A stretch of 64,000 bases of DNA. Origin: Escherichia phage nomo. A model generated the notes under the pieces. The model saw only the letters and a list, made by a program, of their open reading frames with translations, was not told where the DNA came from and did no database searches. Positions within the stretch are counted from its first letter, which is position 1. Every line of letters starts with the position of its first letter. The stretch lies in the sequence record MN850578.1. One strand, given 5' to 3'. This document shows, piece by piece, positions 3,269-63,861 of this stretch. The translations under genes and the position numbers were made by a program.

Positions 3269-3523
3269 ATGAAAATTACTTTGAAGTCAGAATGCGTTGC
3301 AAATGACCGAGCTTTTAAAGATTGCACAGTCGGTGCAATTTATGAAGCAGAGTTTTGTGAGAACCCTCTGGTAAAAGCCCTCCTGGAAGAAGGGGCCCCT
3401 TTATCACAAGAAGAGATCGATGAGCTGGAAAACTCAGCACAGTGCCTTACCTTTAAAGATGATGAAGGAGACTCTGTATGGTGCACTGTTAATGAAGTAG
3501 TTTTTGTAAAACCTGAACATTAA
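3269..3523 (+). CDS. hypothetical small Cys-containing protein (84 aa), paralog of 3587-3847
   Basis: RBS taaggag; shares F(K/R)DCT...DDxGDxV(W/F)CT pattern with the next ORF. Confidence 0.5.
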   Translation: MKITLKSECVANDRAFKDCTVGAIYEAEFCENPLVKALLEEGAPLSQEEIDELENSAQCLTFKDDEGDSVWCTVNEVVFVKPEH

Positions 3524-4791: not shown

Positions 4792-4874
4792 CAAATACCT
4801 ATTGTAATTTGCAGAAGGGGATGCTAAAATAGTGTCTCCTTCTATGTTGTTCAAATAAAATCGGAGATTCCATA

Positions 4875-5240
4875 ATGGAACAAATGAACGATCAAGCGTC
4901 GGTTGCGATGAACGAGCAAGAACAACCTCAAGAATTTTTCTTAGGGTTAAGTAAAGATCAAGTGTCTCTTCTGCTAGTGCTTTCTTCTTTCATGGGAAGA
5001 CTTCAGGAGCTCACACAACAACCAGAGGCTGAACAATTATTTCAAGCTCTGCGTGAAGAAGAAAAATATCGTCGTTTGGACTATGCCTTAGGTTGGGTAG
5101 CTCAACAACGAGATATGCTGATGGCCCTCTCTGGGACCACAAGTTTTGCAATGGGGCTGTTGGCTCAAGTTCAGGACAAATTAATTCAAGCAGGGTTTGC
5201 ACACACGGCAAACACTAACGAAGAACAAGGAGACAAATAA
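4875..5240 (+). CDS. hypothetical protein (121 aa)
   Basis: ORF with RBS ggag upstream; stop overlaps start of next gene (TAATG). Confidence 0.45.
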   Translation: MEQMNDQASVAMNEQEQPQEFFLGLSKDQVSLLLVLSSFMGRLQELTQQPEAEQLFQALREEEKYRRLDYALGWVAQQRDMLMALSGTTSFAMGLLAQVQDKLIQAGFAHTANTNEEQGDK

Positions 5241-19882: not shown

Positions 19883-20190
19883 TCGCTATTACGCCAACCG
19901 TTTTAGATTGGTATCGGCAACGCATAGCGCCTCCGCTGGCTATCTTCAAAGATGCGGAAGCAAAACAACGCCGGATCTCAATACATGAGATCATCAACCT
20001 TAACGCTGGAGGCACACCATACCGCCCAGGACCTGGCCGTGAGATGGACAATACGTTAGCGATCCTGAAGATACGCCGTAAACGGTCCTCCCTTACGCTG
20101 GACTCATTACACACAATGCAGCCTCCGTTCCAGGTGACCGGGAAACGGATCGCCAGGTCCTGGACAAAGGCCAATGATCGGACCGTATAA
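19879..20190 (+). CDS. hypothetical protein (103 aa)
   Basis: ATGA overlap with upstream ORF. Confidence 0.4.
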   Translation: MIAITPTVLDWYRQRIAPPLAIFKDAEAKQRRISIHEIINLNAGGTPYRPGPGREMDNTLAILKIRRKRSSLTLDSLHTMQPPFQVTGKRIARSWTKANDRTV

Positions 20191-21006: not shown

Positions 21007-21025
21007 TACAACAAGATGAACGGTC

Positions 21026-21050
21026 AGGGGCTTAAAGCCCCTTTCTTTTT
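21026..21050 (+). terminator. rho-independent terminator ending the + strand gene block
   Basis: Hairpin aggggcttaaagcccct followed by ttcttttt. Confidence 0.65.
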
Positions 21051-21059
21051 GTCTTCTCT

Positions 21060-23500
21060 TTTCCTACCATAAACGGCCCTACCTGGCAAGTGGAATAATT
21101 GACGAGCCATCAATCCCACACACTGTACAAATATACATGGAAAATAACTATTGCATAATTTTTCATTGTGTGGTAGCAAGGCCATTTTTACACGTTTTTC
21201 CTTCCAAAATTGCACGTAATGCAGCATTTGCACAAAATTTAACCTGATGCATATCTTCAATAGCTTGTCAACAACTAAAAATCTTTATAAGTCATACACT
21301 TACATAACTACAAAAACGTTTTCTACGTGAAAAATCGAGTATAACTATAGCCGCCAGATCTCAGAATTTACGTACGCTCGCCATTCTATAGCCTGCTAAG
21401 CATTTATTCCAACCATAGAATAACTGAATAGTCAATACCTGCATAAAATAATTATTCGTGTAAACTGCATAACATAAATCGGCCCAGGTGTCAACATTTT
21501 TCGTAAACAGTCTGGAATTGTCACGTTAGGTTACCATAAGTAGAGAAATCTTTAGTCGTCTAATGTTTACTGTACGTTACTATATTAACTGAAATCATTA
21601 GATGACTAATAGAAAGATAAGAAATAATTAACAATACAATTATTTTATCTGTAACAATAAGGCAACTATGCAAACGAATGGCATGGCGCGACGGAGTCGC
21701 GACATAATATAAAAGCAGTAACCATCACCCCCGTGATAGTTTGTCTGCAAACTATTAATCAGATCATAGTTGCCTTGTATTTAGTTAATCATGACATAAC
21801 AAGCAAGGCAACTATAGATCTGCTAATAGTTGCCCTGCTTTTATATTATGTCATGCTAATTATAATCAGTGCGATTATTGTCATGTATAATTATTGTCAT
21901 GCAAACGAATGGCATGGCTGATTATCGGTGTGTAAACAGTCAATCATGTAAATGGTTAGCATGTGAACAATCAGGAATGTAAACAATCCAGTGTGTAAAC
22001 TAATAGGTGTGTAAAAGTGTCATGTTGTGTCAGTTAGGTCACATTATGTCAGACAAGTTTTTCTCCTCTTTGTCAAGTGCTGCATGAAAAATTTACAAGC
22101 TTGTATGGTAGCATTTTTGCGGCCCTGTTTACATTCAGGAGTGTATGTATAATCCTTGTTGTGTGGGCGTTTAGACGTCTGGACGGTCAGAAGTCTGCAG
22201 GTCAATATCTAATCTATTGGCTGCTAACTATATCCCCCACAAATAATAAGAAATATAATTGTTATGTGCGTAAACAGTAACCCATGTTATCAATCCCTGT
22301 ATGTATCGCCAGTTGTGCGCATAATGGGTATTATGTTAAATTGCCCGTAATGATAACTATTCTCACAATGATAGGTATTCTCATTCACCCCCACAAGATA
22401 GGTTGCAAATGTTGTGCCACTGTGTGAACGGCCTCACCTATTAATTTGCCTCACTGCCTCGATATTTGAGAATTGTTATAAGAATGAGAAGTATTCCCAT
22501 TCCGTCCGCCTGGCAGCACTCCAGTCGCTACGGCTCCTGACAGGGCAGCACTCCTGTAGGTCAGGTCAAAATCGTGGTAGAACTGGACCTGTTCGGATAT
22601 TTCTGGCTGACTCTTCAGGTCTGTGTGGGAAAAGCCAACCCCTCCGGCGGGGCAGGGGATATCTGCAGGAAAATTGCAGGTCAATTAAAAATTTACGTGG
22701 TGTATGAAGCGCTCTTCAGGCAAGGCATGTATTAGAGGATGAAACCCTCTTCAGGCAATGATATTTGTGGGTGGGATATTTGCTGGAAAGCCAGATATGA
22801 CGGGACTCCCGGCGGGGCAGGGGTAGTACAGACAGGGAAAATATGAGGATGTAATTGGGGAAATTGATCAGACAGGTAGAGTATGGAATATGTTACAGGT
22901 ATGTTAAATATGGAGGTTGAATATCTGTAGGATTTGTGTGTAAAATCAAAGACTTAAGGGGTGTTGTGGTATTTTCTATAAATAATTCAAGTTTAATAGG
23001 CAATATTTGTCTCTATCCGCTTTGTGTGGTAAACAGATTCAGATGAAATTGGTTTACAAGTGTATACATAATATACAAATTAAAGATACAAGAAACCCCC
23101 CTCCCCCCTCGGCTACCATTCACCTTTTCCTCTGACTGGTACTTAAACACTTATTCAGACTCTTCAGGTTATCACCCATATATCATATGGCAGTGACTGG
23201 TGTCCTCCGGCCCCTCTTTCGTCACCCGTCCGCTTCGCCATGCTAATGCCATAGCCAATGGTTCGGTTGTTCACCCTGTTCACTCAGGTGTATCTCCATA
23301 CCCCTTCAAACCGAAGAGAACAGAAAACCCGAATTACTCGGTAAAAGAAAAGAGAAGAACTTAATTTTATCAGGATAGGCAAGAATGTCAAGGCATGACT
23401 GCTCACTAAACAAGCAAACAGTCATGTGTGGAAGGTAAGTGATTGTGGTGGTGGGAAATTTAGTTGAAAGATGTGTTATAGGTGCGCTTCCAGCACTTTA
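21060..23500. other. 2.5-kb non-coding convergence region with several repeat families
   Basis: No convincing ORF; repeats gcaaacgaatggcatggc (x2), tgtgtaaac-like array 21928-22016, ctcttcagg...ccggcggggcagggg units 22606-22840. Confidence 0.55.
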
Positions 23501-23520
23501 GCCTGGCAGCTAATTGTGTG

Positions 23521-39359: not shown

Positions 39360-40568
39360 TCAGCAACCACAACTTCCGTAGTGCTTAACTCGCTCGATAA
39401 CTTCCGCTTGCTTACCTTTATTGTAAGGACGGGAGTTAGGACTGGAAAGGTATCCAGACACACGTCGAATTACACTGATCGTTCCCTCTTCATGGTTTCC
39501 ACACTCTGGGCATACAAAGCCTTTAGCTGTTGCACTGAACTCACCAGAGAAACCACACTTGAGACATTTATCCACAGGTTGGTTAATACCAAAATACATA
39601 ATGTGTTTATACCCGAAGTCAACAAGAGCCTCTAAAGCATCCAGGTTGTTTTTCAGGTTAGGTGTTTCTACGTATCCGATGTTGCCACCAGAGGAGATCA
39701 TAGCAAAACCTTCCTCATACTCCCACTTATCAAAAGGAGAGCTATTTATCCATACTGGCTGATGGAAACTGTTGGTGAGATATTCATGCTCGTGCTTCAA
39801 CACTTCAGGATATTCACGATCCAGACAGGTTGCAGCTTTATAGCATAGACTCTCAGAAGGAGTGCCGTACAAGCTAAATGCTAGTCTACTTTCCTTCTTG
39901 TACCGCTCACAAGCATCTCTCATGTGCTGAAGGATTCCAAGAGCTAAAGCCTTGTCACCTTCTCTGCCCAAAATCTGACAGGTTTCATACACACCAATAT
40001 ACCCAATGCTGATGGAAGCGTACCCATCATAGAAGAGTTTATCAATACTTTCTTCAGGATCCAGGCGAGCAAGAGCGCCTTCACACCACATGATGGGGTT
40101 CTGCCCTGCCTTTGTTCCTTTTAGACGGTTAACCCTTACAAGGTGAGCCTCGTATGCAAGATCCAAGTATTCGTCAAGAACTGCAAAGAAATCAACACCT
40201 TCCGTCTTAGCTTTTGCCGCAATCATTGGCAGGTTAAGGCTAACAACGCCTAAGTTAAATCTGCCAAGGTATTTCTCCTCGCCTGTTTCCAAGTCATTGT
40301 ATTTGCTAAGAAAACTCCGGCAACCCATGCTCGTTACTTTGCCATCTGTCGAGCCTGTCACTTTCCTATTTAGTGGTACAGATACGAAGTCAGGATAGAT
40401 ACGTTCTGCACAGCATTCCAGAGCTAATCGTTTCAAATCATAGTTAGGATCTCCAGGGTTCATGTTGACACCCTCTTCTAGGAAGAACAGCACTTTAGGG
40501 AACACAGGTGTGATCCGTTCTTCACCAAGACCCATTTTGTGGACTTTCAAGTAATTTTTGGTAATCAT
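39360..40568 (-). CDS. nrdD: anaerobic ribonucleoside-triphosphate reductase, C-terminal part (glycyl-radical domain); true 5' boundary may lie upstream of the first ATG
   Basis: C-terminal RRVSGYL glycyl-radical motif and CxxC...C cluster; frame stays open upstream of annotated ATG. Confidence 0.7.
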   Translation of the reverse strand: MITKNYLKVHKMGLGEERITPVFPKVLFFLEEGVNMNPGDPNYDLKRLALECCAERIYPDFVSVPLNRKVTGSTDGKVTSMGCRSFLSKYNDLETGEEKYLGRFNLGVVSLNLPMIAAKAKTEGVDFFAVLDEYLDLAYEAHLVRVNRLKGTKAGQNPIMWCEGALARLDPEESIDKLFYDGYASISIGYIGVYETCQILGREGDKALALGILQHMRDACERYKKESRLAFSLYGTPSESLCYKAATCLDREYPEVLKHEHEYLTNSFHQPVWINSSPFDKWEYEEGFAMISSGGNIGYVETPNLKNNLDALEALVDFGYKHIMYFGINQPVDKCLKCGFSGEFSATAKGFVCPECGNHEEGTISVIRRVSGYLSSPNSRPYNKGKQAEVIERVKHYGSCGC

Positions 40569-60240: not shown

Positions 60241-61172
60241 TGCATATAGTTCTCGTTGTGGAAATAGTAATCAAGTATCTCACGGCGTTCCTGCTCCAGG
60301 AGGCAGTTCCACACATCTTCTGTGTAATTGTTACGAATGAAGTTTACCATGCCGTAAAACTCTTCGTCAACACGTTTAAAGATATCATCATCCCAAATCT
60401 TCCAAGCTTTACCCCTCATTACGGCCTTCCGTGCCAGGTAGTATGGAGACTTGATCTTCAGCTGCAGGTCATAAGGGTAGTAAGGCTTACGGATCATATA
60501 CCCTTCGCCCCTTGTTTCTGCGGCTAATTCTTTTGCATAGCTGAACGGGATTTCACGCACAGTGTGAGGACGTTTTGCACCAAGGTATTTGGCAATCCCA
60601 TCTAAAGCTGCTTCTGGTAGCATTATTCCAGAATCATTATATCTGCAACCTATCAAATATGCGCCATGGTCTTCTTGAACAATATGCGGATCTGAAGGGT
60701 GACAAATTTCAAACATGAATGTCATGTTTTCATTGCCCATAACCTTCTTGATAAGATCTAAATTACCACATTGCTCTTGGATGGTTTCCTTTGCAAGGTT
60801 ACAATATGGAGAATCAAGAGACCCGGTTGTTGAGAACAATAGGTCACCTTTATGAGATGATACCACACCAAGGAATCCGTTCTTTTTCTCTACCGCAGTC
60901 ACAAGCTTATTGTCAGGCAGGTTGGTGGAGTTTTCTCCCAAGTTAAACACTTTTGTGAAGGGCCATGCCACAACATTTCCTTCATTACCTACAACAATGC
61001 CTCGGCACTCCAGTAAACGAGGGGACAAATGCCATAAATTGTTGTAAAATACTTTTCTAGCATATTTATAGATCTTTAACCCGAGATCTGGGTAATACCT
61101 ACTGGTTACAAGACCTTTGTCAACCAGGTCGTCTGCATTAAAATACTTCATTATACGTTCCTCATTTGTCAT
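60237..61172 (-). CDS. RNA-ligase-like nucleotidyltransferase (putative RNA repair ligase)
   Basis: Motif I-like EKKNG, motif IV-like EGYMIR, motif V-like LKIK; distinct from the DNA ligase at 56483. Confidence 0.5.
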   Translation of the reverse strand: MTNEERIMKYFNADDLVDKGLVTSRYYPDLGLKIYKYARKVFYNNLWHLSPRLLECRGIVVGNEGNVVAWPFTKVFNLGENSTNLPDNKLVTAVEKKNGFLGVVSSHKGDLLFSTTGSLDSPYCNLAKETIQEQCGNLDLIKKVMGNENMTFMFEICHPSDPHIVQEDHGAYLIGCRYNDSGIMLPEAALDGIAKYLGAKRPHTVREIPFSYAKELAAETRGEGYMIRKPYYPYDLQLKIKSPYYLARKAVMRGKAWKIWDDDIFKRVDEEFYGMVNFIRNNYTEDVWNCLLEQERREILDYYFHNENYMQ

Positions 61173-61690: not shown

Positions 61691-62245
61691 ATGAAATACT
61701 TTGTAACAAGCGACACACACTTTCTCCACCAGCGGGTCATGGAGTTTGATTCATGTCAAAAACACAGATCTCAGTATGATCACAATCTTGACAGTATGAA
61801 TGCTGGAATCATCGCCGAGTGGAACTCTGTTGTGTCACCTGCAGACACTGTGTTCCACTTGGGAGATATTGCGTGCACTAATGATAAGAATATCAACAAC
61901 TTACTTCCAGATATTCTAAATATGTTGAACGGACATATTATTCTTGTTCGTGGCAACCATGACACAAGGACGACTGTCAGAATTATGAAAGAGTTCGGTC
62001 ATGAGGTTGTAGATTATTACGAGCTTCGCCACAACAAGAATTTGATCTGTATGAGCCATTACCAGTTTGCAAAGTGGAACAGAAAGCCTCACGGATCAGT
62101 CCAACTGTTCGGTCATGCTCACGGAACCACACAACAGTTGTTTGGCAGGCAGCTTGATGTCGGTTGGGATGTGTGGGGGAGACTCTTACCATTAGAAGAG
62201 GCATACCGTATTGCAATGAGTTTTGATATTGACAGCAGGGAGTAA
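61691..62245 (+). CDS. calcineurin-like metallophosphoesterase
   Basis: SDTHF, HLGDIA, RGNHD motifs of metallophosphoesterases; RBS gagga upstream of ATG 61691. Confidence 0.6.
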   Translation: MKYFVTSDTHFLHQRVMEFDSCQKHRSQYDHNLDSMNAGIIAEWNSVVSPADTVFHLGDIACTNDKNINNLLPDILNMLNGHIILVRGNHDTRTTVRIMKEFGHEVVDYYELRHNKNLICMSHYQFAKWNRKPHGSVQLFGHAHGTTQQLFGRQLDVGWDVWGRLLPLEEAYRIAMSFDIDSRE

Positions 62246-62292
62246 TCCCTGCTATTTTAAAGAAAATTGCCACACAAGGAGAATCAGGAGAT

Positions 62293-62643
62293 ATGAAAGA
62301 TGGGGATAAGCTGCTATATCTTAAAGTCCCCCTTGAAATACTATCTATGTCAAAAGTTTTGAATGACACAACTGGGGAGGTTGTTGTTCTTGACTTGTAT
62401 GACAAGATCGTATACTGCTACCTGCACAACTGGTATAAGCTTGGAGGAAATTCACGCTTCACACCAAGCACAAGGAAAATTGCAGCAGATGTTGGGATAA
62501 AGAAAACAAAAGCAGCAGCGTGCGTTAAAACTTTAGAATGTGCAGGAGTGGTTGAAACATCCACACAAGGGAGAGGTAAAAGATGCACATTTTCCAAAGT
62601 TTTGCCACCAGAAGAAGTTATTCGGATGTCAACAACTGGTTAG
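62293..62643 (+). CDS. putative winged-helix DNA-binding protein (116 aa)
   Basis: RBS aaggag; segment STRKIAADVGIKKTKAAACVKTLECAGVV resembles an HTH. Confidence 0.4.
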   Translation: MKDGDKLLYLKVPLEILSMSKVLNDTTGEVVVLDLYDKIVYCYLHNWYKLGGNSRFTPSTRKIAADVGIKKTKAAACVKTLECAGVVETSTQGRGKRCTFSKVLPPEEVIRMSTTG

Positions 62644-62699
62644 ACCAGTAAAAACTTAAATATCTGTACTATAAGGATTCGTATGTTTTATGTTCGCCA

Positions 62700-62890
62700 T
62701 GGAACGGATACTATTAACTGTCCGTCACGCGGACACATCTGCCCGTAATACGGACACTAACTGTCCGTGATACGGACACATAAAGAATATAACTAAAATA
62801 ACTAAATAATAAAAAATAAAAGATCTAGTACTTATGGTACTAAGTACATATACTTAACTTATGTAGAATATACTAGATCCTAAGTACCAT
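62700..62890. repeat. palindrome cluster: GTCCGT/ACGGAC dyads (e.g. tgtccgtgatacggaca), AT-rich spacer, and long dyad around agatctagtact...agtactagatc
   Basis: Inverted repeats read directly; intergenic. Confidence 0.55.
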
Positions 62891-63282
62891 GTTTTAAATT
62901 TATTACTTACTATGGGCAGTGTCGGCCCTTCATTGGCACTCGCCTACGAGGGGCGAGATGCCGGGCCTCCTTGGTGCACACAATAACAGAAGTTCATACA
63001 TGCAGGTCTGTTAACATGTGTGGGAGCGAAGCGATAGCGCAGGCCAAAGGCCGAGCACTGATGTGGACCACCGACGAAAGCTTGCCAGCGCCGTAAGGAG
63101 TCGGTTGAGAGTCTCCCGCGCGAGCTTGGATGAAGTTTATGTGTGGAAACTGACAAGAAGGCCCCTAAATCGCTCCACAGCTATATAAACTATACCAGGT
63201 AATGCAATCGCACCAGTTTGATAGAAAAGCTCGTTACAAAGCGATACAGTGAGTTTTTCTATAACTTGAAGAGGAGGCAGCT

Positions 63283-63861
63283 ATGGGTTCACGCAAAGAT
63301 GACCGTGAAAAGATTGCAAAACGTTATCAGAATGAAGAACAGATGGAGAAAACTTTCAAGTGGAAGCCCGGTTTCCAGCGTAATCATTCTAACGCTCGTG
63401 ATCGTAAGCATCCGGATAAGTGGCTAACACCGCCAAATGATGGCATGCAGGTTGGGGATGAGAAGGAGATGTCGCCTGGAAAAGATGGCAACTACATTCG
63501 CACTAAGGACGCTGGTCCAAAGGATGACAGCTATCTTGTAGATAAGGTTCTTGATGGTATCAATGTAGATGTTGACACTGCACGAAACCTTTTTCTTGGG
63601 TGGTATCGCACAGGTTTTTTCGACATCAAGGCTATTCGTCGTGTTTGTGATATTAAAAAGTCTGTATATGATGACGACTCGTTACATCGCACCCTGAGAC
63701 AATATTCAGAAAGATATGGTCATCCGGTTATCACTCTTGACGATGTTAACGAAGTGATGTATCATGCAGAGGTTGTTGCAGGAAGATTTGGTGATGCATA
63801 TCTTGATATCCTTTCTGCAAAGGATGAGGTAATGTTAAATAAGATTTACTATGAACGCTGA
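63283..63861 (+). CDS. hypothetical protein (192 aa)
   Basis: Strong RBS agaggagg upstream of ATG. Confidence 0.5.
   Translation: MGSRKDDREKIAKRYQNEEQMEKTFKWKPGFQRNHSNARDRKHPDKWLTPPNDGMQVGDEKEMSPGKDGNYIRTKDAGPKDDSYLVDKVLDGINVDVDTARNLFLGWYRTGFFDIKAIRRVCDIKKSVYDDDSLHRTLRQYSERYGHPVITLDDVNEVMYHAEVVAGRFGDAYLDILSAKDEVMLNKIYYER

Follow-up and report, generated by a model that had tools for sequence, protein, structure and literature searches.

Dyad array and AT-rich tract beside a winged-helix gene

The window analysed here, a stretch of 64,000 nucleotides from Escherichia phage nomo (sequence record MN850578.1), is part of a Vequintavirus genome, that of an rV5-like myophage of E. coli, and carries near its right-hand end an array of palindromic repeats (dyads) and an adjoining AT-rich tract, which we describe as a candidate origin of DNA replication. 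Reading rightwards from a divergent strand switch at 61172/61216, the plus-strand genes are those of a P-loop kinase (PNK-like), a metallophosphoesterase and a 116-amino-acid winged-helix protein homologous to the product of rV5 open reading frame (ORF) 79. The last of these genes is followed by an intergenic region of 639 bp and ends 75 bp upstream of the array. Over the 2.5 kb around the array, the sequence is 98-99.8% identical to that of more than 100 Vequintavirus genomes, including rV5, FV3 and the BASEL phage CarlMeissner (Bas48). Duplex stability over the whole 137.6-kb genome was computed on the complete genome of CarlMeissner, in which the array occupies positions 133,950-134,009 of 137,623 bp. 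The features of the locus are collected in Table 1.

The array consists of three copies of TGTCCGnnnnnCGGACA at 62719-62778. Its three 17-bp dyads fit the pattern TGTCCGTnnnACGGACA with 1, 1 and 0 mismatches from left to right, and their centres lie 21 and 22 bp apart, that is, two helical turns. An earlier interpretation of this DNA from its letters (the sequence-only reading) had pointed to repeated GTCCGT/ACGGAC dyads and to a perfect 7-3-7 palindrome, and both were borne out: the palindrome, tgtccgtgatacggaca at 62762-62778, is free of mismatches, and the dyad pattern, expected 0.16 times per 64 kb at up to two mismatches, was found five times, a number reached by none of 100 shuffles. The two matches outside the array, at 20034 and 49466, carry two mismatches each and are probably due to chance. 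No other tandem repeat in the window scores 60 or more, and across the 137.6-kb genome the dyad is confined to this one locus. The palindromic array and the AT-rich tract are real and non-random.

Comparison of 11 genomes revealed that the TGTCCG/CGGACA cores are essentially fixed and that the variation of the dyads sits in their centres. The 160 bp of array and AT-rich tract hold 13 variable sites, as against 16 in the 40 bp directly to the left (62684-62723); the C/T change at 62742 in phage JEP1 restores TGTCCG in the second dyad. Related phages carry two, three or four dyads, most of them having a fourth copy on the left; there are three in the window phage, nomine and A147, and two in phage navn. 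Three public contigs (L021, L022 and L023) and GenBank record MG065672 end inside or right at the array. Such ends are typical of assembly breaks at tandem repeats, and copy numbers derived from short reads, such as the two of navn, may have been collapsed. CarlMeissner bas48_0221, an 81-nt ORF annotated over the array (window 62690-62770), is almost certainly a spurious gene call.

The AT-rich stretch that the sequence-only reading had placed after the dyads is indeed there, with a GC content of 0.22-0.28. When duplex stability was scored by nearest neighbours along the complete genome in windows of 50-150 bp, no stretch was less stable or richer in AT than the tract at 62779-62900, whichever window size was used. 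Its ΔG over 100 bp was -102.2 kcal/mol against a genome mean of -133.6 (standard deviation, 5.8), or 5.4 standard deviations below that mean. It also ranks first within the 64-kb window. On its minus strand the tract matches, letter for letter, the 13-mer consensus of E. coli oriC, GATCTnTTnTTTT, known from the work of Bramhill and Kornberg; such a match is expected 0.14 times in the window and was found once.

A long dyad proposed in the same segment did not hold up. The right arm quoted for it, agtactagatc, does not occur in the DNA, which reads atatactagatcc there, and the true arms of the inverted repeat measure 9 bp. Perfect inverted repeats of at least 9 bp arise in 42 of 300 (14%) composition-matched shuffles of the segment, so that this repeat is by itself not above chance; it holds both GATC sites of the intergenic region, which has no others. 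An 11-nt dyad (62834-62844 / 62880-62890) shows non-compensatory changes in the Aya clade. In view of the shuffle frequency and of these changes, the long dyad was rejected as evidence of a cruciform or hairpin. Another quoted dyad, ggtactaagtac, amounts to a 5-1-5 palindrome only.

Table 1. Coordinates of the features discussed. Positions are those of the 64,000-nt window, except where an L number marks a related locus.
Feature	Position	Strand	Remarks
Predicted sigma-70 promoter of the winged-helix gene	62229..62258	+	TTGACA, 18-nt spacer, TATTTT, upstream TG; 10/12 positions match
Gene for 116-aa winged-helix protein (rV5 ORF 79 homologue), candidate origin-binding initiator	62293..62643	+	Pfam, PHROG, AF2, Foldseek
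Spacer between gene and array	62644..62718		62644-62693 strongly conserved; 62694-62715 hypervariable, the place of the missing fourth (leftmost) dyad of most relatives
Dyad (candidate iteron) 1, TGTCCGTCACGCGGACA	62719..62735		1 mismatch; core TGTCCG...CGGACA invariant in genomes compared; variation at 62726 and in centre (62728-62729)
Dyad (candidate iteron) 2, TGCCCGTAATACGGACA	62740..62756		1 mismatch; sole variable site 62742 (C/T)
Dyad (candidate iteron) 3, TGTCCGTGATACGGACA	62762..62778		0 mismatches; perfect 7-3-7 palindrome (tgtccgtgatacggaca); adjoins AT-rich tract; variation only at 62768-62769
AT-rich, A-rich tract, candidate DNA unwinding element	62779..62900		GC 0.22-0.28; stability minimum; few variable sites in 11 genomes
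Exact oriC 13-mer consensus match GATCTnTTnTTTT (as GATCTTTTATTTT)	62813..62825	-	Sole match in window and in whole genome
9-bp perfect inverted repeat, GATCTAGTA (62822-62830) / TACTAGATC (62871-62879)	62822..62879		Both arms invariant in 11 genomes
Conserved GC-rich non-coding block	62915..63240	+	GC 0.53-0.58 vs ~0.43 for the genome; between AT tract and ORF 63283
A-rich tracts with AAGATAGA / GATAGA motif	L012 3914-3965; L015 3086-3140; L026 4640-4710; L014 3085-3130
Small ribbon-helix-helix-like ORF	L015 ~3293-3400; L026 ~4849-4960; L014 ~3340-3460		Read from sequence

The 116-residue protein and homologous loci in other phages

The gene upstream of the array had been credited with a helix-turn-helix-like segment, and Pfam, PHROG and an AF2 model concur in describing its product as a winged helix-turn-helix (wHTH) protein. 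Pfam returned DUF6945 (3.8e-6; score 27.4 against a cut-off of 28) and HTH_36 (2.3e-5; 24.5 against 25); the relatives P0009 and P0011, whose contigs are too short to show any neighbouring genes, pass the Pfam cut-offs, and close homologues carry precomputed assignments to PF13730. PHROG 12838, 'replication initiation protein', was matched at 5e-80, with weaker matches to the initiator PHROGs 8102, 428 and 270. Among 1.8 billion protein representatives the family is nearly an orphan: word-indexed and exhaustive searches with the single protein returned almost Vequintavirus alone, and a search of IMG/VR with it yielded no relatives. The weak matches P0007, P0010 and P0012 were discarded as repeat or low-complexity artefacts. 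A profile search recovered about 30 family members, and bridging homologues match 'replication initiation O-like' and DnaD-like families. In a tblastn search against plasmids, the matches were a Vequintavirus genome that had been entered as a plasmid and a single weak one to GntR; no plasmid replicon that uses the protein was found.

The AF2 model obtained with five near-identical sequences was unusable (pLDDT 45), and the model retained was built from the profile alignment of about 30 members. It comprises a single winged helix at residues ~35-100, with a pLDDT of 69.7 overall and of 80-91 in the core; no sequence that could form a C-terminal domain extends beyond the wHTH fold. In Foldseek, the best match was 4ro3 (E 8.5e-4), followed by the RepA_N initiators 4pql, 4pt7 and 5kbj, which align over 111 of 116 columns (TMq ~0.55; E 1e-3 to 4e-3) and include a Rep-DNA complex (5kbj), whereas ordinary wHTH repressors align over 45-79 columns only. 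The closest solved relative, 4ro3, is the N-terminal domain of a Vibrio cholerae protein (DUF6945/HTH_36; sequence E 3e-6); since the function of that protein is unknown, the match is uninformative on mechanism. Family annotation and fold similarity suggest that the 116-residue protein may be an initiator.

Longer members of the family (P0014, P0015, P0027-P0029, P0037, P0009, P0011 and KLEP7 gp58) bear acidic C-terminal tails, several of which end in D-x-P-F and resemble the C-terminal tip of bacterial SSB (DDDIPF); the rV5-type protein has no such tail. This resemblance hints that the tails might recruit SSB-binding replication proteins, which would fit replisome recruitment.

Homologues with 20-35% identity were found in four other phage lineages, namely phiPMW, the Barba-like phages with metagenomic relatives, KLEP7, and the Seunavirus SPLA5a. 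In all four, the homologous gene adjoins dyads or repeats with a GACA core together with an AT- or A-rich tract, and the half-site core GACA/TGTC is common to all arrays; the link between protein and array that the sequence-only reading had proposed is supported by this recurrence. The macro-synteny of Pseudomonas phage phiPMW is that of the rV5-like phages, with an RNA-repair module, a divergent switch, the wHTH gene, small ORFs, tRNAs and the large terminase gene. Just upstream of its wHTH gene lie three dyads GGACAAAATGTCC, with no others in the 46 kb examined, and then an A-rich tract; the 50 bp beside the dyads are the least stable 50-bp window of those 46 kb. The published GC-skew minimum of phiPMW, at 40,001 (PMC5587285), is 1.8 kb from its array. 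Rheinheimera Barba phages carry seven GAC-W5-GTC dyads upstream of the wHTH gene, mostly 23-24 bp apart and interleaved with an A-rich tract, as against one such dyad elsewhere in 80 kb, and the metagenomic relatives repeat the pattern. Pseudaeromonas phage KLEP7 has GACA-containing sequences and the exact 13-mer beside its wHTH gene, and no clear array. In the Barba-like phages and KLEP7, an ORF of ~36-40 codons for a ribbon-helix-helix (RHH)-like product (RG-x-x-SRQAYIIECM) stands between the sites and the wHTH gene, an arrangement reminiscent of the cop-rep operons of plasmids, where regulation falls to the RHH protein and not to Rep.

Salmonella phage SPLA5a possesses two paralogous wHTH genes labelled 'replication initiation' (L032 23080-23667 and L013 3468-4036), and exactly these two paralogues are adjoined by the two tracts of lowest stability in the 147-kb genome. 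Its sole exact 13-mer lies at one of them, and its cumulative GC-skew minimum at the other, syntenic one. This distribution suggests two origins, or a duplicated origin module. Between the intergenic region of rV5-like phages and Seunavirus locus B, only the AT tract could be aligned, and that in part; the GC-rich blocks are not homologous.

A AAGATAGA / GATAGA motif recurs in the A-rich tracts of phiPMW, the Barba-like phages and KLEP7, the surrounding DNA being unalignable; the recurrence points to a specific element beyond AT-richness.

A candidate replication origin and competing explanations

We consider it fairly probable that the region is an iteron-type replication origin, akin to lambda ori and the origins of iteron plasmids, with a cis-encoded initiator reduced to its DNA-binding domain. 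This reading is based on the conjunction of a cis-encoded winged-helix protein, phased dyads at a single locus and the weakest duplex of the genome with its 13-mer. Two features of iteron origins are present, namely phased repeats and an adjacent AT-rich stretch; the cis-linked wHTH gene would add a third if its product, a putative initiator by annotation and fold, acts as one. If so, the candidate is probably the main origin of rV5-like phages. The sequence-only reading had left an operator, an origin and a packaging site side by side; of these the origin is now the best supported, by the stability minimum, the 13-mer, the initiator-like protein and the recurrence of the stability result at both paralogues of a Seunavirus, while the operator is weakened and packaging has become unlikely for the reasons given below. 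Both the minimum of cumulative GC skew (132.5 kb in CarlMeissner) and the main divergent strand switch are found 1.4 kb away from the array. Since GC skew in rV5-like genomes tracks the direction of transcription (PMC3606486), this proximity is counted as weak support.

Lambda ori offers a close comparison in layout. Its four iterons (Stx phages have six, and two suffice in vitro) are imperfect inverted repeats of 19 bp that adjoin an AT-rich tract (PMC7466680), and transcription from an upstream promoter enters the origin (PMC3017604). The repeats here are likewise imperfect inverted repeats, of 17 bp and in two to four copies, that directly flank an AT-rich tract; the putative initiator is also encoded in cis, and transcription would also run in from upstream. 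The lambda origin, however, lies inside the O gene, whereas the array follows the end of the wHTH reading frame; the 116-residue protein has no counterpart of the part of O that binds P-DnaB, and shows no match to the Pfam family Phage_rep_O at E values up to 1, O-like PHROGs being matched by the bridging homologues only; and the rV5-like phage, unlike lambda, encodes its own T7-gp4-like primase-helicase and its own polymerase.

After 4ro3, the best full-length fold matches are the RepA_N initiators of staphylococcal multiresistance plasmids. The wHTH domains of RepA_N proteins are dimeric and bind iterons, which are arranged as direct repeats within the rep gene itself, whereas the dyads here lie outside the gene. 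RepA_N proteins also possess a C-terminal host-interaction domain that is absent from the 116-residue protein. The layout seen here, candidate iterons beside an AT-rich tract with the 13-mer GATCTnTTnTTTT, corresponds to what textbooks show for the origins of iteron plasmids and for the unwinding element of oriC. There is one exact 13-mer, though, as against three in oriC, and the element belongs to a lytic phage rather than to a plasmid or a chromosome.

The following sequence of events can be envisaged. Host RNA polymerase would transcribe the wHTH gene early from the predicted promoter at 62229-62258, and transcription probably enters the array region, because no terminator-like site is predicted between promoter and array. 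Dimers of the protein would then bind the two to four dyads, TGTCCG-N5-CGGACA; the two-turn spacing would place the dyads on one face of the DNA and could give rise to a wrapped complex like the lambda O-some or a RepA-iteron complex. This step is proposed because of the symmetry of the dyads, their phasing and their conserved co-location with the gene. The complex, aided by negative supercoiling, would melt the adjoining AT-rich tract with its oriC-type 13-mer. More speculatively, a helicase would load onto the bubble, most economically the phage's own gp4-like primase-helicase, which would need single-stranded DNA only; were it to load itself in this way, an initiator consisting of a DNA-binding domain alone would suffice. 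Like many initiators, the protein may in addition act on nearby transcription, as a repressor or an activator.

A number of observations weigh against an origin. Binding, unwinding and initiation at the locus are all predictions from sequence. Both Pfam matches of the protein fall just under threshold, its PHROG label is itself an annotation, winged-helix domains are generic, and the structural model is of medium confidence with TM-scores of ~0.55; in phmmer, residues 29-96 align with RepA_N at an insignificant E of ~0.8. The protein has no helicase-recruiting domain. Neither a DnaA box (TTATNCACA, up to one mismatch) nor an IHF consensus (WATCAANNNNTTR) occurs in 62600-63300; such sites are common at iteron origins without being universal. 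The AT tract of phiPMW ranks first at 50 bp only, within the 45% of the genome examined, and that of Barba ranks third and is not the genome minimum. The sites of phiPMW, Barba and Seunavirus locus A are located in divergent intergenic regions that bear promoters, which also fits autoregulation. GC skew, finally, is confounded by gene orientation.

There is, in addition, a second region that could be an alternative or additional origin, or else a terminus or an RNA locus. At ~21007-23520 of the window (91.8-94.3 kb in CarlMeissner), a gene-free region of 2.5 kb occupies the convergent junction of two transcription blocks and corresponds to the 'non-coding' box of the rV5 paper. It is rich in repeats, with repeats of the TGTAAACAGTC type and three copies of AATGATAACTATTCTCA, and contains a perfect 18-bp inverted repeat (21701-21718 / 21835-21852). 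The second least stable 100 bp of the genome are found at 21560, within this AT-rich region, which is ~2 kb from the cumulative GC-skew maximum (~95.5 kb in CarlMeissner).

The main rival to an origin at 62719-62900 is an operator array, in which the protein would only repress or activate the block that starts with ORF 63283 and includes tRNAs, lysis genes and structural genes, and the AT tract would be promoter or UP-element DNA. We hold this to be rather unlikely as the sole function, regulatory and origin roles being able to coexist. Many records annotate the gene as 'putative transcriptional regulator', the ArsR/SmtB, MarR/SlyA, LexA and CodY wHTH repressors are among the weaker sequence and structure matches, and the array does sit between the gene and the next block; yet repressor folds cover only the 45-79 core columns where Rep initiators cover 111. 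The sites of phiPMW, Barba and Seunavirus locus A, which lie in divergent regions with annotated or TTGACA-type promoters, speak for regulation, and initiators are often autoregulators as well. In rV5-like phages, the array comes after the gene, a position from which it cannot act on the promoter of that gene. A scan for sigma-70-like promoters (9 or more of 12 positions) found none between 62258 and 63645, and neither the rV5 late-promoter motif nor the T4 late box matched at the array; promoter prediction is fallible, so that this absence weakens the operator reading and does no more. Two to seven phased sites at one locus per genome are unusual for an operator, which moreover has no need of the weakest duplex and the 13-mer, a pairing that nevertheless recurs at both Seunavirus paralogues. 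In the Barba-like and KLEP7 loci, the separate RHH ORF better suits the role of regulator.

Small terminases and lambda Nu1 bind repeated sites through HTH or wHTH domains, and the array could on this ground be a pac site, bound by a small-terminase-like winged-helix protein, at which headful packaging starts upstream of the late genes. That no small terminase is annotated in these genomes, that in rV5-like phages, phiPMW and Barba the large terminase gene follows a few kilobases further along the strand that carries the wHTH gene, and that the rV5-type genome is circularly permuted, which implies headful packaging (PMC3606486), all favour this idea. We nonetheless regard it as highly improbable: a distance of ~4 kb with some ten genes or tRNAs separates the gene from that of the large terminase, so that the two are not adjacent, 116 residues leave no room for an oligomerisation domain, PHROG, Pfam and structural searches of the protein gave no terminase match, one of the two Seunavirus loci is ~76 kb from the terminase gene, and the extreme AT tract and the 13-mer would be left unexplained. 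Scarcely any more credible is another kind of nucleoprotein site (centromere-like, anchoring or a host-factor decoy), or a neutral tandem repeat that happens to lie beside an unrelated DNA-binding protein. The drift of copy number between two and four and the frequent breaks of contig assemblies at the array, as at any tandem repeat, would suit such a site, but conservation of the dyad cores and the AT tract contrasts with a hypervariable immediate flank, the layout of protein, array and AT tract recurs in lineages whose DNA is unalignable, and no partition ATPase was seen among the neighbouring genes.

A more elaborate version of the origin reading, which we consider distinctly doubtful, would have a minimal initiator open the weakest duplex for a loader-free gp4-like primase-helicase; the GC-rich block at 62915-63240 would be part of the origin, for instance through an R-loop or primer transcript or in the regulation of firing, and Seunaviruses would run two origins, each with its paralogous initiator.

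An origin would matter beyond this one phage. Vequintavirinae (rV5, FV3, PVP-SE1 and phi92 relatives) are widely isolated phages of broad host range that are present in therapy and biocontrol collections. The rV5 genome paper stated that its skew analysis showed transcription switches only and did not define an origin (PMC3606486), and our search of the literature (Vequintavirinae origin, iterons, transcriptome data, DUF6945) found no paper defining one for the subfamily. The present analysis yields a precise origin candidate of ~180 bp and a named gene for its putative initiator. In existing records the array, the AT tract and the 13-mer appear solely as unexplained 'repeat_region' features, and some records already label the gene 'replication initiation protein' by automatic annotation; if the candidate is an origin, the common label of transcriptional regulator would be corrected, small ORFs annotated across the array and in the GC-rich block would be flagged as probably spurious, and the segment would be marked as one not to disrupt in engineering. 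In related large lytic phages, origins might also be sought by the trio of winged-helix gene, GACA-core dyads and least stable tract of the genome. The kind of origin is one already known, the mild twist being an initiator seemingly reduced to a DNA-binding domain.

Flanking elements and public records

On the minus strand near the locus are genes for Sir2, a cREC_REC-domain protein (a label taken from precomputed Pfam matches on Logan homologues) and an RNA ligase. To the right of the intergenic region, the plus strand continues with ORF 63283-63861, of no assigned function, and with small ORFs, tRNAs, spanins and the large terminase gene; a tRNA scan of the window itself detected none.

The promoter predicted upstream of the wHTH gene coincides with a site that the rV5 record DQ832317 annotates as 'Sigma70-type promoter; P76'. 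It is overlapped by a hairpin, CAGGGA-GTAA-TCCCTG at 62233-62250, which has the stop codon of the phosphoesterase gene in its loop and is followed by CTATTTTA; judged by its sequence, this hairpin may be a weak terminator or attenuator.

Some records annotate the GC-rich block downstream of the AT tract as small ORFs (rV5 ORF 78, bas48_0222/0223). Substitutions within the block lack codon periodicity in any candidate ORF, and ORFs 62919-63014, 63018-63188 and the like were rejected as genes on this account. RNA folding of the block gave z-scores of -2.0 on the plus strand and -1.25 on the minus strand, with no compensatory pairs and several one-sided changes that keep pairing. Rfam searches, at E values up to 1 on 55-64 kb and at gathering thresholds on the whole window, returned only a chance match to rli43, and none in the block. 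The block could be a structured RNA, a leader or part of the origin. The strong ribosome-binding site of ORF 63283 is directly preceded by a stem of 12 bp (63221-63262; 92% complementary) with a loop of 18 nt, invariant apart from one change that preserves a G-U pair. This stem-loop may be a translational or stability element.

Two sets of public records are of note in their own right. Eighteen GenBank records of the MG0656xx series named 'Campylobacter phage' (e.g. MG065635, MG065672 and MG065644), one of which was seen to be marked UNVERIFIED, are 93-99% identical to E. coli Vequintavirus in this region and are probably mislabelled or contaminant assemblies. The PLSDB entry CP057073.1, a 137,565-bp E. 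coli 'plasmid' from cattle faeces, encodes the 116-residue protein at 102789-103136 with 97.4% identity; because of its size and content, it is read as a complete Vequintavirus genome, which would indicate either a carrier state or contamination.

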